Shown here one piece after another: positions 3,185 to 59,051 of a stretch of DNA of 60,284 nucleotides. The first letter of the stretch is position 1. Each line of letters begins with the position of its first letter. The DNA is from Candidatus Izemoplasma sp. GTDB taxonomy: Bacteria > Bacillota_I > Bacilli_A > Izemoplasmatales > Izemoplasmataceae. The notes under the pieces were generated by a model. It ran no database searches. It saw only the letters and a program-made list of their open reading frames with translations, and was not told the origin of the DNA. The translations under genes were made by a program, and so were the position numbers. The stretch is taken from NCBI GenBank assembly GCA_007116245.1, contig SKIW01000026.1, positions 1 to 60,284 of the forward strand, in the 5' to 3' direction.

Positions 3185-3493
3185 ATGTTAATTGAAAAAG
3201 GAACATTTGTAAGGATTAGAAAAAATTTGCTACTACCAAATGAACGGATTAAAACAATTCCTTCTGAGACAGCTAAGGTTCCTTTCAAGATGTGGATTAA
3301 AGGAGAACTTTTAGAAGAAGCTGAACTTTTTGAAGAGGCGAAGATAATTACTGCAACGGGTAGAATTGTAAGTGGCGTGGTAAAGGAAAAAACTCCAAGA
3401 TATAAACATTCTTATGGAGACTTTGTTGAAGAAATTTATCAAATTAGAAAAATCATACTCAACGAGATGTGGGGTGATTTTGATGACATTTAA
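3185..3493 (+). CDS. ortA: 2-amino-4-ketopentanoate thiolase, alpha (small) subunit
   Basis: 102-aa ORF overlapping the following PLP-enzyme gene by 11 nt. Size and position match OrtA of the ornithine degradation cluster. Confidence 0.65.
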   Translation: MLIEKGTFVRIRKNLLLPNERIKTIPSETAKVPFKMWIKGELLEEAELFEEAKIITATGRIVSGVVKEKTPRYKHSYGDFVEEIYQIRKIILNEMWGDFDDI

Positions 3494-4898
3494 TATTGAT
3501 GATTTATCAAAACGAAAAAACGACATAGTCAAAAAATCCGTGAAGATAGATTATAATCTTTTTGAGAATGAGGGAATAGGATTTGATTATGAAAAGATGA
3601 TGAGTTCAAGTGGACTAAGTTTTGATGATGTACGTCAAATACAGCTCGATTCTGGTGTAGGTAATACTCCATTACGTGAACTGAAAAATCTTACTAGATA
3701 TGCAAGGAAGTTTTCAAAAAAAGGTTACGGCGCACGCATTTTCATAAAGGATGAAGCTAATAATCTTAGCGGCTCTTTTAAAGCGAGGAGAGCGGCTATT
3801 AGTGTACATGTTGCAAAAAAACTAGGGTATAAAGGTGTTATAGCAGCTACAAGTGGCAACTATGGAGCGGCTATTGCAGCTTTAGCAGCGAGAGCAGGTC
3901 TTAAAGCAATTATTGTACAAGAATGTTTTGATTCTAGAAATATAGCTCAACCAGAGATACTCGAAAAAGCTAGAGCTTGTGAATCTTTTGGAGCGGAAGT
4001 AGTACAACTCAGCGTTGGTCCTGAGCTATTTTTGGAGTTTTTGGAATTACTTGATAAAACGGGGTATTTTAACGCTTCATTATATTCACCTTATGGGATT
4101 ATGGGAATTGAAACTTTAGGTTATGAACTAGCTGAAGAAACTCTGATATTAACGGGTAAATATCCAGAAGTTGTTGTTTGTACAAATGCGGGTGGTGGAA
4201 ATCTAACAGGTACTGCTAGGGGACTTAAAAAAGCCGGAGCTAATAAAACAAAAATTGTAGCTTCTAGTGTTAATTTAGAAGGATTACATATGGCAAGTGA
4301 TACGGATTTTAACAGAAAATCATTTACGACCGGGCATACAGGATTTGGTGTTCCATTTGCAGTTAATCCTGATCGAAGCGATGTACCAAGAAGTGCAGCA
4401 AGACCATTAAGATATATGGATGAGTATTATACGATTAATCAAGGAAGTGTATTTTTTATCACCGAAGCTTTAGCTGTTCTCGAGGGATATGAACGGGGTC
4501 CTGCAGGAAACACTTCTCTCGCAGTGGCTTTTAAACTTGCTCAAAGCATGCTAGAAGATGAAATTATCATTGTTCAAGAAACTGAATATACTGGTGCAGG
4601 AAAGCATCATCAGCCACAACTTTCTTTTGCAAAATCAAATAATATTGAATTAAAGTTTGGTGATGTTTCAGAGGAAGTTCCCGGTAAGAATATTGTTTTT
4701 CCGTATTCGGCAGGAGATATAAAAATAAAAGAAATAAGTGTTGATAAACTTAGAAAATCATATTTAAAAAAATATAAAGATGTTGATTTAGCTTTGCTGG
4801 ATAAAAAGTATTTATGTGAAGAGCTAAATGTTCCTTTAGAAAAACTAAATAAGTTATTAGCAGATTTAGGAGGCGACTATGAAAGAAAGAAAAGATGA
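3483..4898 (+). CDS. ortB: 2-amino-4-ketopentanoate thiolase, beta (PLP-dependent) subunit
   Basis: Tryptophan-synthase-beta-fold PLP enzyme: NLSGSFKARRA (PLP lysine), ATSGNYGAA, glycine loop NAGGGNLTG. I prefer the ATG at 3483 (MTFNIDD) over the ORF-track start at 3414, which lies inside ortA. Confidence 0.72.
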   Translation: MTFNIDDLSKRKNDIVKKSVKIDYNLFENEGIGFDYEKMMSSSGLSFDDVRQIQLDSGVGNTPLRELKNLTRYARKFSKKGYGARIFIKDEANNLSGSFKARRAAISVHVAKKLGYKGVIAATSGNYGAAIAALAARAGLKAIIVQECFDSRNIAQPEILEKARACESFGAEVVQLSVGPELFLEFLELLDKTGYFNASLYSPYGIMGIETLGYELAEETLILTGKYPEVVVCTNAGGGNLTGTARGLKKAGANKTKIVASSVNLEGLHMASDTDFNRKSFTTGHTGFGVPFAVNPDRSDVPRSAARPLRYMDEYYTINQGSVFFITEALAVLEGYERGPAGNTSLAVAFKLAQSMLEDEIIIVQETEYTGAGKHHQPQLSFAKSNNIELKFGDVSEEVPGKNIVFPYSAGDIKIKEISVDKLRKSYLKKYKDVDLALLDKKYLCEELNVPLEKLNKLLADLGGDYERKKR

Positions 4899-5235
4899 TT
4901 ATTTAAGCAGACGAGATCATTTAAGAGATATGTCAGATAAAGAATTGAAAGAATACTTCTTTAATTTAGTGGATAAAATGGTAGATCCTTTAATTGAACT
5001 ATCATATGAAAATACTACTAAATCTATTGAGAGAAGTGTTTTATTACGTATGGGGTTTTCAAGTCTTCAAGCAAAAGATGTCGTAGATAAGTTAAATGAG
5101 TACAATCTTTTAAGAAAGGGTTCTGGACACTGCGTTTATAAGGTAGCTAAGAAATTTAAAATTTCACTTCTTAATGCTGGAAAAAAAATAGTTGAGGAAG
5201 ATGGAATAGATTATTTAGTTGAGGTGTTTTCATGA
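4879..5235 (+). CDS. oraS: D-ornithine 4,5-aminomutase, small subunit S
   Basis: 118 aa. SIERSVLLRMGFSSL and GSGHCVYKVAK match my memory of C. sticklandii OraS. The TGA stop overlaps the oraE ATG. Confidence 0.82.
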   Translation: MKERKDDYLSRRDHLRDMSDKELKEYFFNLVDKMVDPLIELSYENTTKSIERSVLLRMGFSSLQAKDVVDKLNEYNLLRKGSGHCVYKVAKKFKISLLNAGKKIVEEDGIDYLVEVFS

Positions 5236-7442
5236 AAAATCTAAAACCAAATGAGAAGTTAGACATTCACGATATATTAAAAGATTTAGACAAATATCAA
5301 CCGCGCAAACGCGGGTGGGTATGGCGTGATAGCCAACCAATAGAAATGCGAGGATTTAAATATGTCCAAGCGAGTCCATCATTAAAAAGATCGATAGCAT
5401 TACCTAGTGCAAATGCATTGGATAATATTGACCCTCAACCCGACAGTGTAATAACAACTGAAATTGCTTCAGGAAGATTTGAAGATGATATTAGGCGTAT
5501 GAGAATGGCTGCATATCATGGTGCTGACCATATTATGGTCATAAGAACTGCGGGTCAATCACATTTCGATGGTCTTTTAGAAGGCACGCCGCAAGGTGTA
5601 GGCGGTATTCCAGTTACACGTAAGCAATTACGTGCGCAAAGACGAGCGTTAGATTTAATTGAAGAAGAAGTTGGTCGTCCAATCAACTATCATTCATATG
5701 TATCAGGGGTTGCTGGTCCTGAGATTGCTGTTTTATTTGTCGAAGAAGGGGTAAATGGAGCACATCAAGATCCACAGTACAATGTACTGTATAGAAACAT
5801 CAATATGGTTAGGAGTTTTGTTGACGCTGCAGAAAGTAAGAAGATTTTAGCTTATGCTAATATAGCTCAAATTGATGGTGCACATAACGCAAATGCTACT
5901 GCAAGAGATGCATGGAAAGTCATGCCTGAACTATTGGTTCAGCACGCTATAAACTCTGTATTCAGTGAAAAAGCTGGAATTAAACCTGAACTTATATGTT
6001 TATCAACTGTTCCACCAGCGGCATCACCAACACCAGATATTAAGATTAATCTACCATATGCGCTAGCCTTAAGAGAGTTTTTTGATAAGTATAAAATGAG
6101 AGCGCAGATGAACACTAAGTATATGGATTCTTCTACACGAGAAGCTACTGTAACGCATGTTTTAAACCTCTTAATATCTCGGTTAACATCTGCAGATATT
6201 CAAAGTACAATTACACCAGATGAAGGTAGAAATGTACCTTGGCATGTATTTAATATAGAAGCTCTAGATACTGCCAAGCAAGCAATGATTGGTATGGATG
6301 ACTTAATGAGTATGCTTTGTTTTAAAGAAGAGGGTTATTTACATACTAAGAAACGCGAAATACAAGAGCGTGCTATTTTAATGATGGAAGAAATCATTGA
6401 AATGGGTGGTTATTTTCAAGCTGTACAAGCAGGCATGTTCGTTGATAGTGGCGAATATCCCGAAAGAAACGGTGACGGAATTGCTCGTGACATAGAAGGT
6501 GGTGTAGGTAATAACTCCGTAATAAAGCGTGACAGCGATTATATGGCGCCAGTTACTGCTCATTTTGGTTATAATAATGTAGAACAATACGGGAAAAAGT
6601 TCGTTGAAAATCCCGCTTTGTTAATAGATGGATGTACATTTGAAAGGCCAGAAATGGTTCAATTTATTGATGAACTTGATGAGTCTGATAATGTTTATTT
6701 AAGATTAGAAGAAACAGAAAAGTATCGTAATTCTAACTTGCTTAAACCAGAAGTTGAATGGCTTGGTGATGGGGTTGTAACAATTGACTTATTTTTCCCA
6801 ACGTCAATAAAAATTGCTAGTGAAGCAGCAATTGCTACAGGTAAAAAAATGAATTTAAAAGATGTTGAAGTTATCCATAAAGAAGTCCTGCATCCTTCTG
6901 AAGGTACAAGGATTCAAATTAAAGGTAAAGTAGATTTTGATATTAATATCGATGATTTAACCATTCCCAAAGATGTTGAAACAATGAGTGAAGAAGAAAT
7001 TTACAATTATGTTAAATCTAACCCGGTTCATGTTATTGCAGGTACTGGAGGGAATGATGAACACAGTGTGGGTTTAAGAGAAGTCCTAGATATTAAGCAT
7101 GGTGGTATTGAGAAATATGGAATCAGTTATACTTATCTAGGTACAAGTGTTCCTATCGAAAAGTTCGTTGATGCAGCAATAGAGATGAATGCACAATGCA
7201 TAATGATGTCAACAATTATCTCACATGATGATATTCATTATAAAAACATGGAGAAGCTTCATAATTACGCTGTTGAAAAAGGTGTAAGAGATAAACTCGT
7301 TTTAATCGCCGGAGGAACACAAGTGACACCAGAAATTGCTAGAAAACACTCAATGGATCAAGGTTTTAGTAGAGGTACAAAAGGGATCCATATTGCAAGT
7401 TTTCTTGTTAACAAAATACGGTTGATTCAAAATGAAGATTGA
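5232..7442 (+). CDS. oraE: D-ornithine 4,5-aminomutase, large subunit E (adenosylcobalamin and PLP dependent)
   Basis: 736 aa. C-terminal Rossmann-type B12 domain with the base-off/His-on motif DEHSVG (nt 7056-7073), then MMSTIISH and LIAGGTQ. N-terminal TIM-barrel-sized part. Coupled to oraS. Confidence 0.85.
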   Translation: MKNLKPNEKLDIHDILKDLDKYQPRKRGWVWRDSQPIEMRGFKYVQASPSLKRSIALPSANALDNIDPQPDSVITTEIASGRFEDDIRRMRMAAYHGADHIMVIRTAGQSHFDGLLEGTPQGVGGIPVTRKQLRAQRRALDLIEEEVGRPINYHSYVSGVAGPEIAVLFVEEGVNGAHQDPQYNVLYRNINMVRSFVDAAESKKILAYANIAQIDGAHNANATARDAWKVMPELLVQHAINSVFSEKAGIKPELICLSTVPPAASPTPDIKINLPYALALREFFDKYKMRAQMNTKYMDSSTREATVTHVLNLLISRLTSADIQSTITPDEGRNVPWHVFNIEALDTAKQAMIGMDDLMSMLCFKEEGYLHTKKREIQERAILMMEEIIEMGGYFQAVQAGMFVDSGEYPERNGDGIARDIEGGVGNNSVIKRDSDYMAPVTAHFGYNNVEQYGKKFVENPALLIDGCTFERPEMVQFIDELDESDNVYLRLEETEKYRNSNLLKPEVEWLGDGVVTIDLFFPTSIKIASEAAIATGKKMNLKDVEVIHKEVLHPSEGTRIQIKGKVDFDINIDDLTIPKDVETMSEEEIYNYVKSNPVHVIAGTGGNDEHSVGLREVLDIKHGGIEKYGISYTYLGTSVPIEKFVDAAIEMNAQCIMMSTIISHDDIHYKNMEKLHNYAVEKGVRDKLVLIAGGTQVTPEIARKHSMDQGFSRGTKGIHIASFLVNKIRLIQNED

Positions 7443-30633: not shown

Positions 30634-30996
30634 ATGGCAGGATATCGTAAATTAAATCGCAGAAGCGATCAAAGAAAAGCGATGCTCCGTGACTTAGTTA
30701 CACAACTAATTATCCACGAACGCATCCAAACTACAGAAACTAAAGCCAAAGAACTTAGCCGTTTAATCGATAAAATGATTACCCTTGGCAAGAAAAACAC
30801 CCTTGCCTCAAGACGTCAAGCCGCAGAAACGGTTCGTTTTCTTGAAGCAGGCGAAAACCAAAACGCATTACAAAAACTCTTTGATGACATTGCACCACGT
30901 TTCAAAGAACGTAATGGTGGTTACACACGGATTTTAAAACTCGGTCCACGTCGTGGTGATTCAACGGATATGGCTATCATTGAGTTTGTTGAATAA
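30634..30996 (+). CDS. rplQ: 50S ribosomal protein L17
   Basis: [21 protein letters not shown]..., GGYTRILK. Confidence 0.97.
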
Positions 30997-31008
30997 TTAA
31001 CATAAATA

Positions 31009-31041
31009 AAGGTGCTTTCAAGCTTGAAAGCACCTTTTTTA
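31009..31041 (+). terminator. Strong intrinsic terminator ending the alpha operon
   Basis: Perfect 11-bp stem GGTGCTTTCAA / TTGAAAGCACC (31011-31034), followed by T6. Confidence 0.85.
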
Positions 31042-31045
31042 TACA

Positions 31046-31094
31046 AATCAATCTAGTGATATAGATTGATTAATACCACTATTTACGATACAAT
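31046..31094 (+). promoter_or_regulatory. Promoter of the helicase gene, overlapped by a 10-bp perfect inverted repeat
   Basis: IR AATCAATCTA-gtgata-TAGATTGATT (31046-31071). The right arm contains the -35 TTGATT (31066-31071), followed by a 17-nt spacer and -10 TACAAT (31089-31094). Confidence 0.4.
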
Positions 31095-31128
31095 TATTTT
31101 ATGACAAAAACGCCCAAAAGGTGATAAT

Positions 31129-34100
31129 ATGCCCTTAAAAAAAGACTTATTACTTGAAGAATTAGCTTTTACACGCGATGAAATCATTGCGCATACATAC
31201 CACCAAAAAGGATACGTACCTGAGGTATGTAATGATCAAGCACTGCAAGAAATCGCCTCAAAAAAACCAACAAAAATTAGCGACTTTAAAGCTATTCAAG
31301 GATTAAACGACGCTTTTCTTGAACTTTATGCTGAGCGTTTTTTAAACGTGGTTTCAAAACATAAATCACAATCAATTCACGAAGTTTCAGTCTCAAAAAG
31401 TGCCAAAAAAACATTGAGTGAATATCAAGACAGACTAACAAATCTTTCAAGAAGGAACCGCAATTTATATACACCACGTGTCACACAGAAACATGCAGTA
31501 GATCTTTATCAAGAACATTTAATAGACAAAATCATTAAGTTTCTTTCAAACCCTAAGCAAAAAACGTTAAAACTAACGAACTATATAGAAGGTAATGAAC
31601 AAGATAGTTTTCATCGCTCACTAGTCGTATTACATCGTGAAATGCGTTACGTTAAAAAAGATAAAGGGTCTTATGACCTTTTTATAGCCTACCCATTTGT
31701 ACAAGGAAGACTGCCTAAAGATGATTTCTTTATAAAAGCACCTCTCTTATTCTTTCCAGTAACCCTAGAAAGAAAAGGATATGATTTCCACTTAACTAAA
31801 AATACGGAGAAAGATATATTAATAAATCGCGACTTAATTTTAGCTAATCACAAAATACATCGCTTCCACGATATCGATATACCCCCTACAATTGATCCGT
31901 TTTCAGTACAAGAATTTAACAAGAATATCTTAGAATACTACAAAGACCACCATATAATAATTCAAGGCGAAATAAATCCTAAAGAACCAATCATTCCGTT
32001 TGAGAACATCACATTGAACGATCTTCCAAAACGCACTTCTAAAAAACTCGTTCTTGAGTCAAATATCCTTCTAGGAAAATATACCATGTATACTTCGCAC
32101 ATCCAAGAAGACATTCACGAGATTATCCAAAGAAAATCCTACAATGATCTTCTAGAAACGCTGATAGATCGTCCTTTCCACTTATACGATTACCGAAATG
32201 CAGTCCCATTTAAGCAAACAGCACATCAAACTTTCACAGAAAAACAACTTAATTACATTAACGAAGTCAATTACGCACAAGAAAAAGTTTTATCATTGAT
32301 CGATGAGAATGATCAACTCGTTATCTGGGGACCGCCAGGAACAGGTAAATCACAAACCATTACTAATATAATCGCACATCAAATCGCAAAAAAAGAGAAT
32401 GTGCTAGTAGTATCGGAAAAGAAAGTCGCCCTAGATGTAATACTAGCAAGACTAAAAGAAGCATCTAACTACACCTTATTTATTGATGATGCCCAAAATA
32501 AGTCACAATTTTATTCACAGATCAAAGATGTCATGAATCCCCGACCTCCATCACGAACACAAAACAACGACCGCTATTCCATCGATTATCGCATTGATAA
32601 AATTATTCAACATTTACAAAACATCCAAAACACCTTTTATACACCTAATGGTTCTGATATAAAACCATATACGATATATCACAGATACTTAAAAGATAAT
32701 AAAATATCAGAAGATTTATTACCGGAAGATGTATATAAAACCTTTAAATCAAGATTCAAACACTTTAAGTTTGATGATTTTAAACAGTTAGAAATGCAGT
32801 TCGATGAGAAAAAATTACTTAAATCAATGTTTCTGTATACCCAATACATAGAAAGTTATCCTATTTTAAAACATATTAACATTCAACTCACACGTACAGA
32901 AAAACAAAAAAGGAACACATTATTAGATACACTTGAGACAAAAATAGAATCGCTTGAAAATGCCTCGTTTCTAAAAAGACGACGCATCGCAAAAACCATT
33001 ATTTCTCAACATAGCCGTGAAATCGATTACCTTTATACAAAGAAAAAACACACTAAAAAGTTTCTTAAGCTATTGCTTCGTGATCCCGCGCTTTTTATCA
33101 TTATGCGCAAGCATCATTCTCATTTTGAGCGCTACGAGCGTATTTATAACACCTTAACTAAAGATCAAAAAAACTATATCGAGATGCTTCGTAAAGACGA
33201 ACCTTTTAAAAACATTACCGACATCGAAAAACTCCACAATCACTTATTCGATTGCTACTACACAGGGTACATCGAACGATTTGAAGCATTAAATCAAAAA
33301 CACGTAGAATCATTGAATGAATACCAACAGCACCTCGAGGTCTTAAAGGATTTAATACAAATTAAAGAAGCGATGAACATCGATAATTTTAATATGGACT
33401 TATACCAGGAATCGCTTAACCTATCAAATACAAAGCGGAACATGGATATCAAAAGACACCTTGAAAGCAAACGTAAAAAATCAGTGAGAGACTTTATACA
33501 AGACTATCAACTCGAACTTTTTTCACACATAAAAGTGTGGTTAATGACCCCTGAAGTTGTTTCGGAAATTTTACCCTTAAATTACGCCATGTTTGATCTT
33601 GTGGTTTTCGACGAAGCAAGTCAATTATACGTAGAAAAAGCGATACCAACCATTTATCGTGCACGCAAAGTGGTTATTGCTGGTGATACCAAACAACTTA
33701 GACCATCAAGTTTAGGCTCAGGAAGGTATGACTCAAACGAAGATTTAGAAGAAGAAAACATTCCTATCGCTAAAGATGCAGAGTCATTGCTCGACTTAGC
33801 GCGCTATCAATATCCAGAAACCATATTAAATTATCACTATAGATCAAGTTTTGAGGAACTTATCGCATTTTCTAACTTTGCCTTTTACGAAGGCAAGCTC
33901 ATGGTTTCACCAAACGTCACAGTAGAGAAAAAACCTCCAATTGAATACCATGTCGTTGAAGATGGTGTTTGGGAAAATAGACGAAACATCAAAGAAGCGG
34001 AACAAGTCATCACTATCGTTAAAAAAATACTTAGAACACGCAAACAAAACGAATCGATAGGCATTATAACCTTCAACACCCAACAACGCACACAAATCGA

Positions 34101-34851
34101 AGATTTATTAGATATAGAGATCTACAAAAACTCACGCTATAGTAAAAAGCTACAAAAAGAACTAAATCGTAAAGAAAACGACGAAGACCAAAGTCTTTTC
34201 GTTAAAAACATCGAAAACGTACAAGGTGATGAACGCGATATTATTATCTTCTCAACAGCATACGCAAAAAATAAAGAAGGAAGATTTCTTAGACAATTTG
34301 GTTGGTTAAACAACGAAGGTGGACAAAATCGTCTAAACGTAGCAATCTCAAGAGCTAAAAAGAAAATCTACTTTATCACATCGTTTTATCCCGAAAACTT
34401 TAGAGTAGATGACTTAAAAGGTCAAGGACCTAAATTACTTAAACGATACATGGAGTACGCTTATGCAATCTCAGAAAAAGATCATAAGCAAGCAGAAAAT
34501 ATACTAAAATCTCTATACCAACAAAATACTGTCCAACAGAATCTAACAGAATCTTACCTTATCGAAAACGTCGAAAAACGTTTAAAAGCACTCGATTATA
34601 AACTCGAGAAAAACATTGGTATCGGAGGCTATTCGATTGATTTTGTACTTGTGGATAAGCAAACACACGAAAGAGTCCTTGGCATTATTTGTGAAGACCA
34701 CCGCAAAATGAACACCGATGTAAGAGACCAGTACTATCATCAAGAGAAATACTTAAACGCAAGAGGATGGACAATTTATCGAATCTTTGGGCCAAACTGG
34801 TTTAAAGACCCTAATAAAGAAATGAGAGACATCCGAAAACTGCTTAATTAA
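31129..34851 (+). CDS. Orphan 1240-aa multidomain protein: HRDC-like N-terminus, DUF4011-like region, Upf1-type SF1 helicase (AAA_11/AAA_12-like), C-terminal Vsr/REase-like (DUF559/MTES_1575-like) domain
   Basis: Walker A GPPGTGKSQT (nt 32329-32358) and Walker B VVFDEASQ (nt 33601-33624), separated by ~420 aa. YHYRSSFEELIAFSN, GIITFN, VQGDERDIIIFS, RLNVAISRAKKK helicase motifs. LTNLSRRNRNLY and APLLFFPVTLERK (DUF4011-like). C-terminus GYSIDFVLVD...ICED...RDQYYHQEKYLNARGWTIYRIF. Confidence 0.75.
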   Translation: MPLKKDLLLEELAFTRDEIIAHTYHQKGYVPEVCNDQALQEIASKKPTKISDFKAIQGLNDAFLELYAERFLNVVSKHKSQSIHEVSVSKSAKKTLSEYQDRLTNLSRRNRNLYTPRVTQKHAVDLYQEHLIDKIIKFLSNPKQKTLKLTNYIEGNEQDSFHRSLVVLHREMRYVKKDKGSYDLFIAYPFVQGRLPKDDFFIKAPLLFFPVTLERKGYDFHLTKNTEKDILINRDLILANHKIHRFHDIDIPPTIDPFSVQEFNKNILEYYKDHHIIIQGEINPKEPIIPFENITLNDLPKRTSKKLVLESNILLGKYTMYTSHIQEDIHEIIQRKSYNDLLETLIDRPFHLYDYRNAVPFKQTAHQTFTEKQLNYINEVNYAQEKVLSLIDENDQLVIWGPPGTGKSQTITNIIAHQIAKKENVLVVSEKKVALDVILARLKEASNYTLFIDDAQNKSQFYSQIKDVMNPRPPSRTQNNDRYSIDYRIDKIIQHLQNIQNTFYTPNGSDIKPYTIYHRYLKDNKISEDLLPEDVYKTFKSRFKHFKFDDFKQLEMQFDEKKLLKSMFLYTQYIESYPILKHINIQLTRTEKQKRNTLLDTLETKIESLENASFLKRRRIAKTIISQHSREIDYLYTKKKHTKKFLKLLLRDPALFIIMRKHHSHFERYERIYNTLTKDQKNYIEMLRKDEPFKNITDIEKLHNHLFDCYYTGYIERFEALNQKHVESLNEYQQHLEVLKDLIQIKEAMNIDNFNMDLYQESLNLSNTKRNMDIKRHLESKRKKSVRDFIQDYQLELFSHIKVWLMTPEVVSEILPLNYAMFDLVVFDEASQLYVEKAIPTIYRARKVVIAGDTKQLRPSSLGSGRYDSNEDLEEENIPIAKDAESLLDLARYQYPETILNYHYRSSFEELIAFSNFAFYEGKLMVSPNVTVEKKPPIEYHVVEDGVWENRRNIKEAEQVITIVKKILRTRKQNESIGIITFNTQQRTQIEDLLDIEIYKNSRYSKKLQKELNRKENDEDQSLFVKNIENVQGDERDIIIFSTAYAKNKEGRFLRQFGWLNNEGGQNRLNVAISRAKKKIYFITSFYPENFRVDDLKGQGPKLLKRYMEYAYAISEKDHKQAENILKSLYQQNTVQQNLTESYLIENVEKRLKALDYKLEKNIGIGGYSIDFVLVDKQTHERVLGIICEDHRKMNTDVRDQYYHQEKYLNARGWTIYRIFGPNWFKDPNKEMRDIRKLLN

Positions 34852-34873: not shown

Positions 34874-34903
34874 TTAGCAATATAGAATAGAGTTTGATAT
34901 AAT
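34874..34903 (+). promoter_or_regulatory. Putative promoter of the ecfA1-ecfA2-ecfT-truA operon (extended -10)
   Basis: TTAGCA (34874-34879), 18-nt spacer, TGaTATAAT (-10 at 34898-34903). Confidence 0.4.
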
Positions 34904-34928: not shown

Positions 34929-35735
34929 ATGAATAGTATAGAAATTAAGGACGTATCGTTTCAATATCAATCAAATACACCGGTGTTACAAGACATTAAT
35001 TTGACAATAAAAAAAGGCGAATGGGTTACCATTTTAGGCCATAACGGTAGTGGAAAATCAACGCTATCAAAACTCATTATCGGACTTTTAAAAGCAAAAA
35101 CAGGTCAAATACTTGTAAATGGTATCGAGCTTAATCCAGAGACAGTTCAAGATATTCGCCAAAAAGTAGGTATCGTATTTCAAAACCCCGACAACCAATT
35201 CGTCGGGGTTACTGTACGTGATGATATCGCTTTTGGACTTGAAAACTTACAAGTACCTAGAGAAGATATGGTAGAACGCATCGAAAAATACGCTAAAAAA
35301 GTTAATATGTCGGACTTTTTAAACAAAGAACCACACGCACTTAGCGGCGGTCAAAAACAACGCGTCGCCATAGCGGGTATTTTAGCTATGAATACCGATA
35401 TCATCATTTTTGATGAAGCGACATCGATGTTAGACCCTAAAGGACGCAACATGGTCTTAGATACAATGAAACAATTAAGAAGTGAAGGGAAAACGATTAT
35501 TACCATTACACACACAATGAAAGAAGCCCTTTTAAGTGACCGGATTGTTGTTTTAAAACAAGGACGGATACTTAAAGTGGGCAACTCAAAAGATATATTA
35601 AAAGATAAAGAAACCCTTGAAAAATCCAACCTTGAAATGCTTTTACCCTTAAGAATACTATATGACCTTGAACAAACTAATTATTCCAATGAAAGGATTA
35701 AAAACCTCTTATGGGAATTAAGTTTAAGCGTGTAG
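34929..35735 (+). CDS. ecfA1: ECF transporter energy-coupling ATPase EcfA1
   Basis: GHNGSGKST Walker A, LSGGQKQRVAIA signature, IIIFDEATSMLD Walker B. First of two tandem ATPases followed by ecfT, downstream of the rplQ region as in Bacillus. Confidence 0.9.
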   Translation: MNSIEIKDVSFQYQSNTPVLQDINLTIKKGEWVTILGHNGSGKSTLSKLIIGLLKAKTGQILVNGIELNPETVQDIRQKVGIVFQNPDNQFVGVTVRDDIAFGLENLQVPREDMVERIEKYAKKVNMSDFLNKEPHALSGGQKQRVAIAGILAMNTDIIIFDEATSMLDPKGRNMVLDTMKQLRSEGKTIITITHTMKEALLSDRIVVLKQGRILKVGNSKDILKDKETLEKSNLEMLLPLRILYDLEQTNYSNERIKNLLWELSLSV

Positions 35736-36574: not shown

Positions 36575-37536
36575 AAAATATTGTAATCGGACGTTATATT
36601 CCAGGGAATACCTTCCTTTATAAAATGGACCCAAGAACTAAAATAATTGCTCTAATCATCCTTATGGTATCGGTATTTATTATTCGTTCATTTACATTTA
36701 TGCTCGGAAGTCTCGGGATTATTATCATTGTTTTACTCATCGGAAAAATAAGTGTAAAACGCGTATACTTAGGGTTAAGACCATTAATGTTTTTACTTAT
36801 ATTTACGTTTGTATTTCAAATCCTATTTAACACGCAAGGGGAATTACTGATTGAACGGACACTTTACTACACACTATACACAATACCGATAACCATACTT
36901 ATCATTACATTTTGGATATTTACTAAACGATATATTCGATTTAAACTTCTTTACTTCTTACTCGTACTAACATCAATCGTATACGTACTTACAACACTAG
37001 ATCTCGGGTACACTATAGGACAAGGTGAACTCTCAATCTATTCCCAAGGTGTCGAAATGGCGTTTTTCATTATGATTAGATTAATAATCATCGTAACGCT
37101 ATCTACAATACTTACACTCACGACAAAACCAACCGACTTAAATTTAGGGTTAGAATCAGTACTAAAACCACTCAAAATATTTAGAGTAAACACCGAAGAA
37201 ATCGCGATGATTTTAGCGATTAGTTTACGGTATATTCCAACCTTACTCGATGAAGCCAACAAAATCATGTTAGCACAAGCAAGTCGCGGCGTCGACTTTA
37301 GCGAAGGAAAACTAAAAGATAAAGTCATGCAGATTGTATCATTATTAGTACCAATGTTCATTATCTCCTTTAAACGAAGTGATGATCTAGCAAACGCGAT
37401 GGAAGCACGCTCCTTCGTTCCAGGTAGACCAAGAACACGTCTACAAGTATTAAAGTGGACACGTCTAGATACAATAACACTAGGCATAACATTTATCGCA
37501 CTAATAACATCAATTAGCTTAAGGATTTTCTTATGA
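36571..37536 (+). CDS. ecfT: ECF transporter transmembrane component EcfT (enlarged, 321 aa)
   Basis: DPRTKI near the N-terminus, conserved ARSF coupling-helix motif (AMEARSF), multiple TM segments. Follows ecfA1/A2. Confidence 0.85.
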   Translation: MKNIVIGRYIPGNTFLYKMDPRTKIIALIILMVSVFIIRSFTFMLGSLGIIIIVLLIGKISVKRVYLGLRPLMFLLIFTFVFQILFNTQGELLIERTLYYTLYTIPITILIITFWIFTKRYIRFKLLYFLLVLTSIVYVLTTLDLGYTIGQGELSIYSQGVEMAFFIMIRLIIIVTLSTILTLTTKPTDLNLGLESVLKPLKIFRVNTEEIAMILAISLRYIPTLLDEANKIMLAQASRGVDFSEGKLKDKVMQIVSLLVPMFIISFKRSDDLANAMEARSFVPGRPRTRLQVLKWTRLDTITLGITFIALITSISLRIFL

Positions 37537-38492
37537 GTTACGACATATTAACTAATATGTTATCTCAGGACTGTGCCCTAAAATTTAACGAAGATGTGTA
37601 TTTTGACAATGACAGAATTAGTAAAATTCTTAAAGAAATCAAAATTAAGTCATCAAAACCATATCTTTCCTATGAACTAGTCGAAGCGGAATCTAATCAA
37701 ACACCACTTATTGGTAAAATAAAGTACCAAGATAAAAAAATCGTTAGTGTAGTACTTGAGTCGATCAATAACGTATCCCGTTATCGAGTTGACCTATCCT
37801 ATGACGGAACAAACTACAAAGGATTTCAAAAACAACCCCACAACACTACGATTCAAGATACACTCGAAAAATGCTTAACACACCTTTGTCAAGAAACCAT
37901 CCTAATTCACCCCGCCTCAAGAACGGATGCACATGTACATGCTTTACACCAAGTCATTCATTTCGATACATCATCATCAATATCTAAAGAAACCTTGATA
38001 AAACAACTCAACTATATGTTGCCAAGAGATATACGTGCGATATCTATAGAAAATGTACCACAAGTATTCCATGCGCGTTACGATACTATAAAAAAAACAT
38101 ATCAATACATCCTAACAAAAGAAACCAATCCACTTAAAGCACACTACACGCATTACATTCACGATTTTAATAAGGAAAAAGCGTTATCAATCCTTAATAC
38201 AGTTATCGGAACCCATGACTTCAAAAACTTTTCAAAATCACAAGAAAACATCAATACAACACGCACAATTCAGCAAGTAAAGATTATTGAACAGCCTTCC
38301 AAATACATAATAGAAATCACGGGTGATGGCTTTTTAAGACATATGGTACGTATGCTTATCGGACACCTTTTATACGAACTTACACACCAAAAAAACACCT
38401 TTAAAGAAGCGCTAAATAATCCACTAAAGGCGCATCGTAAATATTTAGCACCACCACAAGCACTATACTTAAAAACCATCGCATACAAATAA
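37533..38492 (+). CDS. truA: tRNA pseudouridine(38-40) synthase TruA with an ~82-aa N-terminal extension
   Basis: Core starts at RYRVDLSYDGTNYKGFQKQ (aa ~83). ASRTDAHVHA catalytic Asp motif, GDGFLRHMVR. ATG overlaps the ecfT stop (ATGA). Confidence 0.88.
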   Translation: MSYDILTNMLSQDCALKFNEDVYFDNDRISKILKEIKIKSSKPYLSYELVEAESNQTPLIGKIKYQDKKIVSVVLESINNVSRYRVDLSYDGTNYKGFQKQPHNTTIQDTLEKCLTHLCQETILIHPASRTDAHVHALHQVIHFDTSSSISKETLIKQLNYMLPRDIRAISIENVPQVFHARYDTIKKTYQYILTKETNPLKAHYTHYIHDFNKEKALSILNTVIGTHDFKNFSKSQENINTTRTIQQVKIIEQPSKYIIEITGDGFLRHMVRMLIGHLLYELTHQKNTFKEALNNPLKAHRKYLAPPQALYLKTIAYK

Positions 38493-52353: not shown

Positions 52354-53049
52354 ATGGCTAAAAAAGGTAAAAAATTTACCGCTGCATTAGATAGAATCGA
52401 TCGTACGAAACGCTATGCAGCTAAAGAAGCAATTGAACTTATAAAAGACATTTCTTTTGAAAAGTTTGATGCAACCGTAGAATGTGCAATTCGCCTTAAC
52501 GTAGACCCACGTAAAGCTGATCAAAACTTACGTGGTGCAATCGTGTTACCGCACGGTACAGGGAAAACGAAACGTGTCCTTGTCTTTGCGAAAGGTGAAA
52601 AAGCGAAAGAAGCTGAAGAAGCTGGGGCAGACTTTGTTGGAGAAGAAGACATGGTCGAAAAAGTACTTGGTGGATGGCTTGGATTCGACACTGTTGTTGC
52701 AACACCAGATATGATGGCGCAAGTAGGTAAATTAGGACGCACACTCGGACCTAAAGGACTTATGCCAAACCCAAAAACTGGTACAGTTACAATGGATGTT
52801 AAAAAAGCGGTTGAAGACATCAAAGCTGGTAAAGTAGAATACCGTGTTGATAAAGTAGGAAACATTCATGTTTCACTCGGTAGAAAATCATTTGAGAACG
52901 AAAAAATCTTAGAAAACCTTCGCGTCTTCTACGATACAATGATTAAAATCAAACCAGCTACTTCTAAGGGAGTTTACATTAAGAACATTTCACTTGCTAC
53001 AACCATGGGACCTGGTGTCAAACTTGACCCAGATGCCATATTAAAATAA
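52354..53049 (+). CDS. rplA: 50S ribosomal protein L1
   Basis: MAKKGKKF..., [11 protein letters not shown]...[22 protein letters not shown]. Confidence 0.97.
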
Positions 53050-53184
53050 GATTACTACATACACTGTCACAGACTCAGGAGCGTAAGCTTAAAAACTATC
53101 CTGCCGAGACGAAAGATAAAGACGTAAGTCCTCTTTTGTCGCTTGACAGAAGAGGTTTTTTATTCTACACCAAAGGAGGAAACT
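53050..53184 (+). promoter_or_regulatory. L10 (rplJ) leader with terminator-type attenuator
   Basis: 135-nt leader. 11-bp stem CCTCTTTTGTC (53130-53140) / GACAGAAGAGG (53145-53155), loop GCTT, then T6 (53156-53161), 24 nt before the rplJ ATG. This matches the attenuation-type L10 leader of Bacillota. Confidence 0.6.
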
Positions 53185-53685
53185 ATGTCTACAAAAGCGA
53201 TTGAAAAAAAGCAAGCACTCGTAGAAGAATTGACACAAAAAATGACTGAAGCTAACGCGTTTGTCGTTTTAGACTATTTAGGACTAACCGTAGATCAAGT
53301 TACAAAACTTCGTGTACAATTGCTTGAAAGCGGCTGTGAAATGCTCGTTGTTAAAAACAATATTTCACGTCGTGCCGCAAAAGCAGCAGGATACGAAAAA
53401 ATGGTAGAGCATTTCGTAGGACCAAACGCACTTGCGTTCTCATACCAAGATAGCGTATCTGCCGCAAAAGTTGTATACGACTTTGCCAAAGACCACAAGA
53501 AACTTGAACTTAAAGTAGGGGTTGTAGATGGCGAGTTCATGAACAACGAAAAGATTCAAACCATCGCGACTATTCCATCAAGAGAAACATTACTCACTAT
53601 GTTCGCAGGTGGCATTATGCAACCAATCCGCGAAGTTGCAGTAGCATTACATTTACACATTGAAAATCTAGAAAATAACGCATAA
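53185..53685 (+). CDS. rplJ: 50S ribosomal protein L10
   Basis: [16 protein letters not shown]..., ATG after AAAGGAGG. The ORF-track start at 53143 lies inside the attenuator hairpin. Confidence 0.95.
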
Positions 53686-54833: not shown

Positions 54834-57800
54834 GTGAATTACAAAATCGTTAAATACGGAAAAAAACGCGAGCGAAGAAATTACTCGCGGGTGAAATCAA
54901 ATATCGACTTACCCAACCTTATTGAAGTTCAAACTGATTCCTTTGATTGGTTTATCAAAGAAGGACTTAAAGAGCTCTTCAAAGACATTTCACCCATTGA
55001 AAATCCAACCCAAGATTTAGAACTATATTTTGAGAACTTTGAATTTGGAGACTCAAAATATACGATTTCTGAATCAAAAGAAAAAGACAAAACATACGCG
55101 AAACCTTTACATGTTAACATTAAGTTGTTAAACAAACGTAAAGATAGTGTACAAGAAATATCAGAACAAAAAGTCTATTTAGGTGATATTCCTTTTATGA
55201 CTTCAACAGGCTCCTTCATTATTAACGGATCAGAACGTGTAATCGTTTCTCAAATCGTTCGTAGTGCAGGTGTATTTTTTGATACCAAAGTTGATAAAAA
55301 GACATTGAAGCGTAAATTCGAAGGCCAAGTCATTCCAAACCGTGGAGCTTGGTTAGAATACGATATCGATTCAAAAGATATTTTATATGTTAAACTTGAT
55401 CGTTCTAAAAAAATCCCCCTTACGACGTTACTTAAGTCATTAGGATTAAACTTAGAACAACTCAATTACTTATATCGCAATAACGCGTTAATTCGGACAA
55501 CACTCAAACGTGATACTACACAATCTTCTAATGAAGCTATTATCGAGATTTATACAAAGCTACGTCAAGGCGAAATCGCGAAAAGCTACCAAGCTCAAGA
55601 GTTTTTAATTAGTCGATTATTTAATTCTAAACGTTATGAACTTGCTGAAGTAGGACGCTATAAAATCAATAAAAAACTTAATATTTTAAATCATATACGC
55701 GGTAAACGGCTTGCTCAGGATATTGTTAATCCTGAGACAGGAGAAGTGATTTTAGAAAAAGATACCCCAATCACACGTAAAGAAATGGATATTCTTAATC
55801 GTAACCGTGAATCCTTTACACAAACGGTTCCTGGTGTTTTAGCGGCGAGCTTAGAATACGATTTTGAGATTCAACGCGATATCTTAATGGGTAACCCTTA
55901 TCTAAATAGCATCCGTATCTCAAAAGAAGATTTCATTCTTTCTGAAGGAACTAAGGCATATCAAGACACATTAGAAGACTTAGAAGAATTACTCAATAGT
56001 TCCACATTAACTAAAGATGATCTTAATGCGCATCCGTTTTTAAACACGCTTTCTGCTAAAGAAAAAACAAAAATTCTTAAAAATAAAGAGTTTTCAGCAC
56101 CTGAAACATACGCTGATCTCCATCTAAAATCCATTAATACTTCACTTGAAAAGTACTTATATGATGAAGGATTACGTCGTTATGAACTCATGGAAAAAGC
56201 GTTTGAAGAAATGGTCAGTGAAAACGACATTACGATGGATACATTAGATTCTAACCCGTATCTTGATTATTTAACACTCGAAGAAAAACATGCATATTTA
56301 GCACAAAGTAAAACCTTAACCACAGAGCTTTGTATTGAAGACTACTTCCGCTATTTAACCGTTCAAGAACGTTTAAATGAGATTAAGTCACAAAGCTATT
56401 TAAGCGTTGAAGAATATGTGGAAAAAGTATTACAAACAAAACAACAATCAAAAAAAGAATTTGTTAAGGCTAACGGACAAAATGCATACGATGACATGGT
56501 TGAATCAATTACAACGACATTAAATGATGAAAAACTTTATTTCGAGCTTGCTAAGATTGAAGTATTAGACATTTATCATCGTAACCGTGAAGATGAAGAA
56601 GTCATCTTGCGTTTAATCGGAAACCACTCTTTAGAAGATAAAGAACATATCGTGCCATCGGATATTATTGCGAGTATTGCTTATTACTTAAACCTTTATC
56701 AAGGGTATGGACGCTTAGATGATATCGATCATCTAGGAAACCGTCGTTTACGCTTAATTGGTGAACTACTCAAAAACCATTTCCGCATTGGTTTATCTAA
56801 ATTAGAGAAAAATGTTAAAGATCGAATGAGTACAAATGAACAAGAAGTGATTATGACACCTCAAAAACTCATTAACAATAGACCCCTTATCTCAACCTTA
56901 AAAGAGTTTTTCGGATCTAGTCAGTTATCTCAGTTCATGTCACAAACAAATCCACTAGATGAGCTAACACATAAACGTCGTATCTCAGCGTTAGGCCCTG
57001 GTGGACTAACCCGGGACCGTGCGGGATTTGAAGTGCGTGACGTTCACTACTCACATTATGGTCGGATTTGTCCGATTGAAACACCTGAGGGGCAAAACAT
57101 CGGCTTAATTAACAGTTTAGCGTCTTACGTTCGCGTGAATCGTTATGGCTTTATTGAAACACCATATCTTCACGTTAACACAAAAGAACTTGGAGACGAT
57201 CAATACGAGTTAACAGTTACAGACGAAGTTGTCTTTATGGCAGCGGACGAAGAAGAACAATATTATATTGGACAAGCGAACATCGCACTCGATGATGATA
57301 ACCGCATTTTAAACGAGAATGTCGTTGCAAGATATATGGGAGAAACGAAAATGTTTGCAAGAGAACTCATTGAGTATATCGATGTATCTCCAAAACAGAT
57401 TGTTTCTATCTCAACAGCATGTATCCCGTTCTTAGAGCACGACGATGCAAACCGCGCATTAATGGGTGCGAACATGCAACGTCAAGCGATTCCTTTGTTA
57501 AGACCTGAAGCAGCGTTCGTAGGTACAGGAATCGAGTACAAAGCAGCTAAAGATTCTGGTTCATGCTTAATTGCATTAAACTCCGGTACAGTGAAGTATG
57601 TAGATGCTAAAAACATCATTATCGAACGTGAAGATAAACAACGTGATTACTACAATTTAACGAAGTTCGAAAGAAGTAATCAAGGAACATGTATTAACCA
57701 AAAACCCATTGTCACAGTAGGTGAAGAAGTCACAGCCGGTGAGATTATTACGGATGGTCCTTCAATGGATCAAGGTGAACTCGCTTTAGGACGTAATGTT

Positions 57801-59051
57801 ACTGTTGCGTTTATGACATGGAATGGTTACAACTATGAGGATGCGATTATTTTAAGTGAAAGACTCGTTAAAGAAGATATATACACTTCGATTCATATCG
57901 AAAAATATGAAGCAGAAGCCCGAGAAACAAAACTAGGGAAAGAAGAGATTACCCGTGAAATTCCTAATGTGGGTGAAGAAGGACGTCGTTTCTTAGATGA
58001 CCGAGGCATAATCATTCCTGGTGCTGAAGTTGAAGAAGGCGATATTTTAGTCGGTAAAATTACCCCTAAAGGACAAACCGATCCAACACCTGAAGATAAA
58101 CTACTTCTTGCGATCTTTGGAGAAAAATCACGAGAAGTACGGGATACATCATTACGCGTACCTCATGGCGGTGGCGGTATCGTTCAAAGCGTGAAATACT
58201 TTTCACGTGCAAACGATGATGAATTACCACCAGGTGCAAACGAAGTAGTTCAAGTCTTTATCGTCCAAAAACGTAAAATTTCAGAAGGCGATAAAATGGC
58301 TGGACGTCATGGTAATAAAGGCGTTATCTCTAAAATACTACCAGAAGAAGATATGCCGTATTTACCCGATGGTACACCAATCGATATCATGCTTAATCCC
58401 TTAGGCGTTCCATCACGAATGAATATCGGACAAGTATTAGAAATCCATTTAGGGATGGCAGCTAAAAAACTAGGAATCCATGTCGCAACACCGGTCTTTG
58501 ACGGTGTTGAAAATGATGATCTAGTTGAGATTATGAAAGAAGCTAATATGCAAATGGATGGAAAAATAAAACTCTATTCTGGACGCACCGGTATCGCATA
58601 CGATAACGATGTATCCGTAGGAATTATGCATATGATTAAATTAGACCATATGGTCGACGATAAATTACACGCACGCAGTGTTGGACCATACACACTTGTT
58701 ACACAACAACCGATGGGTGGTAAAGCACAAAACGGTGGACAACGTTTTGGTGAGATGGAAGTATGGGCGTTAGAAGCTTATGGCGCAGCGTACTGTTTAC
58801 AAGAAATGTTAACCGTTAAAAGCGATGATATCATCGGTCGAAATAAAGTCTTTAGAGCGATTGTTGATGGTAAAAGCATTCCAGGACCAAGCCTACCAGA
58901 ATCTTTCCGGGTCTTGACACGTGAGCTTCAAGCTCTAGGTATTTATGTTGAACTTATTAGCCGAGAAACAAAGAAAAACGAAGCAAACAAAAGTTTAGTG
59001 GAAGATTCTGATGTCGAAGACTATCTAGACAAATACGGCTTTAACTCTTAA
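54834..59051 (+). CDS. rpoB: DNA-directed RNA polymerase subunit beta, with a ~220-aa lineage-specific insertion
   Basis: GTG start. [76 protein letters not shown]. 1405 aa, versus roughly 1190-1200 in Bacillus (from memory). Confidence 0.97.

Follow-up and report, generated by a model that had tools for sequence, protein, structure and literature searches.

The window analysed here is a stretch of 60,284 nt from Candidatus Izemoplasma sp. (assembly GCA_007116245.1, contig SKIW01000026.1). Within it, a single open reading frame at positions 31129-34851 of the plus strand, the strand of all the signals and domains located below, lies between rplQ (30634-30996) and ecfA1 (34929-35735), the latter being followed by ecfA2, ecfT and truA. 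The frame encodes a protein of 1240 aa that joins an HRDC domain, a DUF4011 domain, a Upf1-like superfamily 1B (SF1B) helicase and a Vsr-like restriction endonuclease (REase) domain and that, judged by its sequence, is a member of the DUF4011 helicase-REase superfamily belonging to neither of its named families, Hhe and ProA. Upstream of it, rplQ ends in an intrinsic terminator (31008-31042) with a 13-bp stem, a 4-nt loop and a T-run. The hairpin at 31008-31037, taken together with the T-run, has a folding energy of -19.8 kcal/mol (z = -7.9), and its stem carries compensatory changes in both syntenic relatives, L006 and L007. Behind the terminator comes a predicted private promoter (31066-31094), in which a -35 hexamer TTGATT (31066-31071) and a -10 hexamer TACAAT (31089-31094) are separated by a 17-nt spacer, and then a ribosome-binding site, AAAGGTGAT (31117-31125), of which AAGGTGATA is invariant in the three-way alignment of the window, L006 and L007. 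Both hexamers and the ribosome-binding site are kept in the two relatives, and the element probably functions as a promoter. The initial annotation of this DNA had already described a strong rplQ terminator with a self-contained promoter behind it, and these observations were confirmed in the present work. Downstream, no terminator was found between the stop codon of the helicase gene and ecfA1; a promoter-like site for ecfA1 at 34874-34903 (TTAGCA, an 18-nt spacer and TG-TATAAT) is a consensus match only.

The domain fusion proposed in the initial annotation is well supported by profile searches, as all five Pfam domains score above their gathering cut-offs. The HRDC domain occupies the N-terminus (31141-31374, aa ~5-82; PF00570 matches aa 33-75 with 30.1 bits against a cut-off of 23.8) and is followed by the DUF4011 domain (31435-31836, aa 103-236; 41.9 bits, cut-off 22.2), which contains LTNLSRRNRNLY and APLLFFPVTLERK. 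The two halves of the helicase are recognized as AAA_11 (aa 383-627; 67.4 bits, cut-off 27) and AAA_12, that is, domain 2A (33808-34377, aa 894-1083; 72.2 bits, cut-off 27). The C-terminal Vsr-like domain (MTES_1575, PF18741; 34564-34842, aa 1146-1238) scores 67.2 bits against a cut-off of 38.2, which bears out the proposal of an REase fold at this end; the match spans positions 3-95 of the 96-position profile, and the protein stops 2 aa past the domain. In the AlphaFold2 model of aa 1-400, with a predicted local distance difference test score (pLDDT) of 82, the N-terminal domain superposes on the HRDC domain of Escherichia coli RecQ (1wud), its best structural match (template-modelling score 0.88, root-mean-square deviation 1.4-1.5 A), so the HRDC fold that had been read from the sequence is seen in the predicted structure as well. 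The DUF4011 region is also modelled with confidence (pLDDT mostly 80-94), and a fold search with it against the PDB returned no relative, the N-terminal model matching HRDC only.

The helicase motor bears all the marks of an intact enzyme. The Walker A motif (motif I, GPPGTGKSQT, with K407; 32329-32358, aa 401-410) is invariant in 15 orthologs and nearly so in the 120 described below, FDEASQ of the Walker B motif (motif II, VVFDEASQ; 33601-33624, aa 825-832) is invariant in orthologs, and so are the domain 2A motifs NYHYRS, TFN, QGDERD and GGQNRLNVAxxRAK in the orthologs aligned; the earlier coordinates of both Walker motifs, and the number of the lysine, proved exact. The unusual spacing of ~420 aa between the two Walker motifs is real, and the segment is helical throughout in the AlphaFold2 model, as had been guessed. 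Most of it is an all-helical insert of ~340 aa in helicase domain 1A (32509-33528, aa ~461-800; helices only, pLDDT ~80-94), which is the least conserved block of the protein (mean column conservation 0.59), the motor domains being the most conserved (0.80-0.90) and the REase domain reaching 0.67. The model of aa 370-1240 (pLDDT 85.5, predicted template-modelling score 0.78) matched Aquarius, SETX, UPF1, IGHMBP2 and Dna2 in Foldseek with a probability of 1.00, and ZNFX1 was also matched, in agreement with the Upf1-like core that had been proposed. With AAA_11 and AAA_12 above their gathering scores and motif I, motif II and the arginine-finger motifs intact, the protein falls within the Upf1-like SF1B helicases, and its motor is intact and most likely active.

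Such a set of matches raises the possibility of an RNA helicase of the Upf1, Sen1 or IGHMBP2 type engaged in RNA or R-loop surveillance, in which HRDC would bind RNA as it does in RNase D and Rrp6. The best solved sequence and structure matches are indeed RNA or RNA/DNA helicases (IGHMBP2, Sen1/SETX, UPF1, Aquarius), the HRDC domain is found in RNase D and Rrp6 too, and in the lineage of the window the gene lies within the ribosomal-protein region. However, this location is lineage-specific, HRDC finds its closest match in RecQ, a DNA helicase, the C-terminal domain has the fold of a DNA endonuclease, the DNA helicase-nuclease Dna2 is matched equally well, and the sequence does not reveal a substrate preference. 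An RNA-directed role of this kind is regarded as improbable.

The C-terminal domain was aligned with those of Hhe, ProA, distant compact homologs and clade orthologs. The common REase signature is 'xIDLxx ... GIECDGxxYH ... ARDRDxxRxxxLxxxGWxIxRIW', while the window protein reads 'SIDFVL ... GIICEDHR ... VRDQYYHQEKYLNARGWTIYRIF', giving an active site of D1171...I1187-C-E1189 with no His, which departs from the D...E-x-D(-G..H) signature of the family. By alignment, Asp1171 (34639-34641) takes the position of the Asp that opens the D-E-D signature and belongs to 'IDL' in Hhe and ProA; the 31 closest orthologs all keep this Asp, and among the 120 orthologs listed the position is Asn in 53, Asp in 51, Ser in 9 and His in 4. 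Ile1187 (34687-34689) aligns with the Glu of GI-E-CDG (E1727 of Hhe, or E1731 by an alternative start), and Glu is found here in none of the 120 orthologs (Ile in 94, Leu in 21, Val in 4 and Asn in 1). Glu1189 (34693-34695) takes the place of the Asp in GIEC-D-G and is acidic in 115 of the 120. The initial annotation had questioned the nuclease on the ground that its acidic pair reads ED rather than ExD; the doubt stands, but the wrong residue was singled out, since on this alignment E1189 is a conservative change and the truly missing residue is the Glu replaced by Ile1187. Across 145 representatives of the wider family the GIECDG Glu is kept in 127, the full D-E-D in 109 and 'DEDH' in 63, and the Ile variant is essentially confined to the clade of the window.

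The weight of this particular Glu comes from E. coli Hhe, in which, according to a preprint, the E1731A change in the Vsr domain abolishes defence against T7 (bioRxiv 10.1101/2022.06.16.496414). When Hhe is numbered from its annotated start, the sole nearby Glu is E1727, within GIECDG. Four codons upstream of the RefSeq hhe start there is an in-frame ATG (MENI-MSTV; L144:2989-3000), and counting from it yields the published numbering, so E1731 is the GIECDG Glu, which aligns with Ile1187 of the window protein. Either RefSeq or the publication may thus have the start codon of hhe wrong. As matters stand, nuclease activity of the window protein looks doubtful from its sequence. Given the clade-wide change of the Glu to a hydrophobic residue and the loss of the first Asp in more than half of the clade, the C-terminal domain is probably not an effector of the Hhe type; it would rather be a DNA-recognition or regulatory module, or else a nuclease with a rearranged site.

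The gene had been called an orphan, a description that does not survive a search of 5.8 billion proteins. The 120 closest homologs listed, from Izemoplasmatales and Acholeplasmatales, are 1229-1279 aa long, 44-74% identical and nearly all full-length, and the Pfam architecture is the same in all of them; their named sources include Candidatus Izimaplasma HR1 and ZiA1, Izemoplasmataceae, Xianfuyuplasma coldseepsis, Acholeplasma hippikon and Acholeplasmatales. When the A. hippikon protein was used as the query of a second search, A. granularum and A. vituli were added, with a count of 741 clusters (90% identity) at E <= 1e-50. Moreover, a phmmer search of 1.84 billion representatives with the single sequence of aa 41-1240 found ~50 further clusters (50% identity) of proteins of ~1200-1290 aa, whose end-to-end alignments show 32-40% identity. 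Two of these clusters are named, one as an 'HRDC domain-containing protein [Clostridia bacterium]' and the other as a protein from a Thermoplasmata metagenome-assembled genome (MAG), and HRDC was present in five of the seven distant compact homologs scanned. The compact five-domain form is therefore a broad and unnamed subfamily, of which the window protein represents the Izemoplasma/Acholeplasma branch. Unrelated SF1 proteins of 700-1000 aa (L016, L021 and L035) were dropped as homologs. A pseudogene or decaying remnant was also considered and rejected: the open reading frame is intact, the length is nearly constant in all listed homologs and the motifs are invariant.

The placement of the gene had been taken for an insertion into the ribosomal-ECF locus. 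The order rplQ-helicase-ecfA1 is restricted to the window and the two relatives closest to it, L006 (74% identity) and L007/L012 (73%, a Candidatus Izimaplasma MAG), whereas the orthologs that are no more than 55% identical occupy ten other neighbourhoods (L001, L002, L004/5, L008/9, L010/11, L138, L139 and L140). There they are always solitary, in mostly metabolic or housekeeping surroundings, and in the ten neighbourhoods examined no integrase, transposase or recognizable defence gene adjoins them; some residual microsynteny (an Na/H exchanger, a GGDEF gene and a 115-aa cupin) links L001, L004 and L140. Nor is any partner gene conserved across the ortholog neighbourhoods examined, which extends the earlier remark that none was visible. 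Related loci were fetched through EcfA1 (64-71% identity), and 11 of them hold both rplQ and ecfA1. The two genes are 108-131 nt apart in seven, and in the other four the gap holds other cargo: a lipoprotein gene in L082; an AAA ATPase and a Phd/Doc toxin-antitoxin pair in L083; genes for an L25/Ctc-like protein, a CMD-like protein and membrane proteins together with plsY in L087; and a surface protein gene and plsY in L093. The adjacency of rplQ and ecfA1 is therefore ancestral, and in Izemoplasmatales-like genomes their junction appears to serve as a variable slot for cargo, into which the helicase gene was relocated in one genus-level lineage. The earlier question of whether the two genes are normally contiguous in related genomes is answered to this extent, the gene itself occupying the junction in none but the window and its two closest relatives; likewise, the proposed insertion is right in that an ancestrally adjacent pair was interrupted, but not in the sense of a recent or mobile event.

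That sense deserves some attention, as an orphan gene recently gained by horizontal transfer, or brought by a mobile element into the ribosomal/ECF locus, would agree with the ancestral state of rplQ beside ecfA1, with a promoter of its own behind a terminator and with a junction that accepts other cargo in relatives. Yet orthologs occur throughout two orders, and the same placement is found in relatives at 73-74% identity from which synonymous divergence is saturated. The composition of the gene is native (GC 0.342 and GC3 0.308, like its neighbours), no direct or inverted repeats bracket it, and no integrase or transposase was found near it in the window. On these grounds a recent or mobile insertion was rejected; such an origin is very improbable, and a recent orphan insertion is essentially excluded.

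Evolutionary rates tell a similar story. Among the three syntenic genomes synonymous sites are saturated (proportion of synonymous differences, pS, ~0.8), so that only nonsynonymous divergence (dN) relative to the neighbours is usable, and by this measure the helicase (dN against L006/L007 ~0.20) stands between ecfT/holB (~0.15) and truA (~0.38). In the more distant P0067 genome the identity to the window is 46% for the helicase, 67% for EcfA1, 64% for EcfA2, 59% for EcfT and 31% for TruA; the helicase thus keeps the rank among its neighbours that it has in close relatives, which fits vertical descent, and the gene was probably inherited in this way. In Izemoplasmatales and Acholeplasmatales, which are wall-less orders of Bacillota, it is a solitary, clade-conserved chromosomal gene under purifying selection.

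What the protein does is less easily settled. The initial annotation pointed to anti-phage or anti-plasmid defence or to nucleic-acid surveillance. As a defence protein it would work alone, like Hhe or ProA: its helicase would scan for or sense foreign DNA, its Vsr-like domain would cut that DNA, perhaps through a rearranged active site, and the gene would happen to be fixed in this clade. Anti-phage families do give the best profile matches: PDC-S37 in PADLOC (477 bits), Hhe (236 bits in PADLOC, over the C-terminal part only, and 335.2 bits with the NCBIfam model NF042953), ProA (513.3 bits, NF058533) and MkoC (102 bits in PADLOC, where the MkoC and MkoA matches are limited to the helicase region). 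However, both NCBIfam equivalog cut-offs, 1500 bits for ProA and 2000 for Hhe, are missed widely, so the comparison with defence-system profiles, which bears on a check that had been suggested, gave partial matches and placed the protein in no named family. A literature search found no open paper describing ProA or PDC-S37, and the 'anti-phage' label of ProA comes from its NCBIfam name only. The earlier statement that this architecture has no assigned function is outdated for the superfamily, in which Hhe and ProA are annotated as anti-phage proteins, and correct for the compact HRDC form.

Genomic distribution bears on the same question. Distant relatives at 26-32% identity are common on plasmids (596 records) and hardly any occur in phage genomes; three of the plasmid proteins are true ProA (1782-2372 bits, 1718-2221 aa). 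Of 5426 complete E. coli genomes, 295 (5.4%) carry the hhe gene, which is flanked by insertion-sequence elements or DUF262 genes and so is a typical patchy accessory gene. Both observations would suit a defence protein. The gene studied here, by contrast, is clade-wide, of near-constant length and found mostly in housekeeping or metabolic contexts, unlike the usual distribution of defence genes. A large DUF4011 gene has also been reported in every Pseudomonas aeruginosa isolate in the database of one study, where it bounds the core defence hotspot cDHS1 (bioRxiv 10.1101/2022.11.11.516204); it shows independently that a DUF4011 gene can be core and not patchy. As to the active site, some true ProA members have Ile in place of the Glu and D1171 and E1189 are retained in the subclade of the window, whereas the Glu that Hhe needs is absent in all 120 orthologs listed and more than half of these lack the first Asp as well. 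A compact homolog adjoining a restriction-modification system, described below, and the Phd/Doc pair that fills the rplQ-ecfA1 slot in one relative are two further points in favour of defence. Weighing all this, a working defence protein is the main alternative to the reading favoured below, possible but rather unlikely. The defence inference of the initial annotation remains plausible by homology and is weakened by the clade-wide distribution, the housekeeping and metabolic neighbourhoods and the loss of the Hhe-type Glu.

We favour instead, with a confidence that is no better than evenly balanced, a helicase-dependent role in nucleic-acid surveillance or genome maintenance that evolved from a defence-type ancestor; this estimate spans the identity of the protein, which is secure, and its function, which is not. 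Family membership and the invariant helicase motifs suggest an ATP-driven motor that would move 5' to 3' on single-stranded nucleic acid, and HRDC and DUF4011 would target this motor to structured or branched substrates, with the C-terminal domain acting in recognition or regulation as suggested above. In the lineage of the window the gene was moved into the rplQ-ecfA1 slot, where it keeps its own predicted promoter behind the rplQ terminator. A more specific version of this history may be offered tentatively: a defence-type helicase-nuclease of the Hhe/ProA kind could have been domesticated in the common ancestor of Izemoplasmatales and Acholeplasmatales into a core, vertically inherited genome- or RNA-maintenance helicase, its Vsr-like domain, minus the catalytic Glu, being repurposed for nucleic-acid recognition. 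If true, such a domesticated helicase would be a bacterial parallel to the eukaryotic Upf1-like surveillance helicases.

Several observations weigh against a maintenance role. The closest annotated relatives are anti-phage proteins, and we know of no DUF4011 protein with a demonstrated housekeeping role. In Mycoplasma hominis an integrative conjugative element disrupts a DUF4011 gene, and this is not lethal (PMC12228374). Of the three true ProA proteins examined, two have Ile where the Glu is expected ('GIICDG' and 'GIIVDG'), and loss of the Glu may therefore not abolish function. The subclade of the window retains Asp1171 and an acidic residue at position 1189, and E1206 (HQEKYL), which is clade-specific and nearly invariant, may be a catalytic residue that has changed place. 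The compact homolog P0159 of a Clostridia MAG, with a canonical D-E-D, lies directly upstream of a restriction-modification pair (L141:11088-13035), and a copy on the Spiroplasma citri plasmid pSciBLHMB-7 lies ~1.6 kb upstream of a gene for an NgoFVII-family REase; the wider subfamily therefore mixes with defence genes. Finally, conservation in the clade was counted on the homologs found, a count that provides no denominator for universality.

The two neighbourhoods just mentioned have some features of their own. The pair beside P0159 consists of a DNA methylase and an MwoI-like endonuclease and is the sole defence-type neighbourhood seen for the compact subfamily. The relative on the mollicute plasmid pSciBLHMB-7 (L143:3815-7413) comprises two adjacent coding sequences, one with the DUF4011 part and the other with the helicase C-terminal and REase part, and may be either a frameshifted or a genuinely split copy; it is 39% identical to the C-terminal 445 aa of the window protein and carries 'GIICDD'.

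Whichever function applies, DUF4011 helicase-nucleases are poorly understood, even in the cases of Hhe and ProA, and the compact clade-fixed form, with its intact motor and degenerate nuclease site, is a natural separation-of-function variant that could reveal what the motor, HRDC and DUF4011 modules do alone. It may also exemplify how, in bacteria with small genomes, a defence gene takes on a housekeeping role. Domain content alone does not justify annotating members of this clade as Hhe or ProA defence genes.

Several other features of the window were recorded along the way. The truA gene (37533-38492, 319 aa) changes much faster than the other genes of its operon: it is only 55-56% identical at the protein level to its counterparts in L006 and L007, compared with 80-87% for the ecf genes, in keeping with its dN given above. 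TruA of more distant relatives aligns only beyond ~aa 47-70, a hint of an N-terminal extension that is poorly conserved. The rpoB gene (54834-59051) encodes an unusually long beta subunit of 1405 aa, in which the Pfam domain 1 match extends over aa 28-683 and implies a large lineage-specific insertion. An Rfam L10 leader was found at 53049-53170, upstream of an open reading frame at 53143-53685 that is presumably rplJ. Near the start of the window, a gene at 5232-7442 for a B12-dependent D-ornithine/D-lysine aminomutase-like protein (Lys-AminoMut_A, OAM_dimer and B12-binding domains) forms an operon with one for a pyridoxal phosphate-dependent enzyme (3414-4898), which suggests a capacity for amino-acid fermentation in this small-genome bacterium.

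Comparison with known systems shows which parts of the protein are familiar and which are its own. The Upf1-like SF1B helicases UPF1, IGHMBP2, Sen1/SETX, Aquarius, Dna2 and ZNFX1 have the motor fold and motifs in common with it and likewise carry accessory domains inserted into domain 1A. They are, however, eukaryotic and equipped with other accessory domains, and none has a DUF4011, HRDC or Vsr-like domain; Dna2 is a helicase-nuclease fusion too, but its nuclease is N-terminal and of another REase type. The N-terminal ~80 aa have the same fold as the HRDC of RecQ, where HRDC lies C-terminal to an SF2 helicase, whereas in the window protein it lies N-terminal to an SF1B helicase. MkoC of Mokosh type II is, like the window protein, a single-protein fusion of a Upf1-like helicase and a nuclease, but its effector is a PLD-family nuclease, and no PLD domain was found in the window protein by Pfam.

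Closer still are the two named families of the DUF4011 superfamily. In ProA the core order of DUF4011, an SF1 Upf1-like helicase whose Walker A and Walker B motifs are separated by a long insert, and MTES_1575 is that of the window protein, and BLASTP aligns the two with 34% identity over aa 781-1240 and 24% over aa 161-494 (DUF4011 and Walker A). The ProA insert is nevertheless much longer, and the two inserts do not align. ProA also has an extra N-terminal region of ~380-415 aa, with DUF4011 starting at aa 379-417 rather than at aa 103 after HRDC. Two of the three ProA proteins examined carry a C-terminal DUF3320, which the window protein lacks, and none of the three has an HRDC match; ProA is plasmid-borne, whereas the window gene is chromosomal and clade-conserved. 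Hhe is likewise encoded by a single gene with DUF4011, an SF1 helicase and a Vsr-like MTES_1575 domain and is ~30-31% identical to the window protein over the C-terminal 460 aa. At 1825-1911 aa, however, it has a large N-terminal region; the MTES_1575 archetype's N-terminal region has been described as HEPN (PMC3710099), whereas the 1240-aa window protein has no HEPN, and HRDC is its sole N-terminal domain. Where Hhe reads 'GIECDGAAYH', the window protein has Ile at the required Glu. The nearest likeness in overall form is with the compact proteins of Clostridia and other taxa, annotated as 'HRDC domain-containing protein' or 'DUF4011 domain-containing protein', which have the length (~1200-1290 aa) and five-domain order of the window protein; most of these distant proteins keep the canonical D-E-D(-H) signature, and the Izemoplasma/Acholeplasma clade is the Ile variant. 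Nothing in the window protein contradicts what is expected of the superfamily, and it is not a categorically new system but a compact, HRDC-capped and nuclease-degenerate branch of the one to which Hhe and ProA belong.

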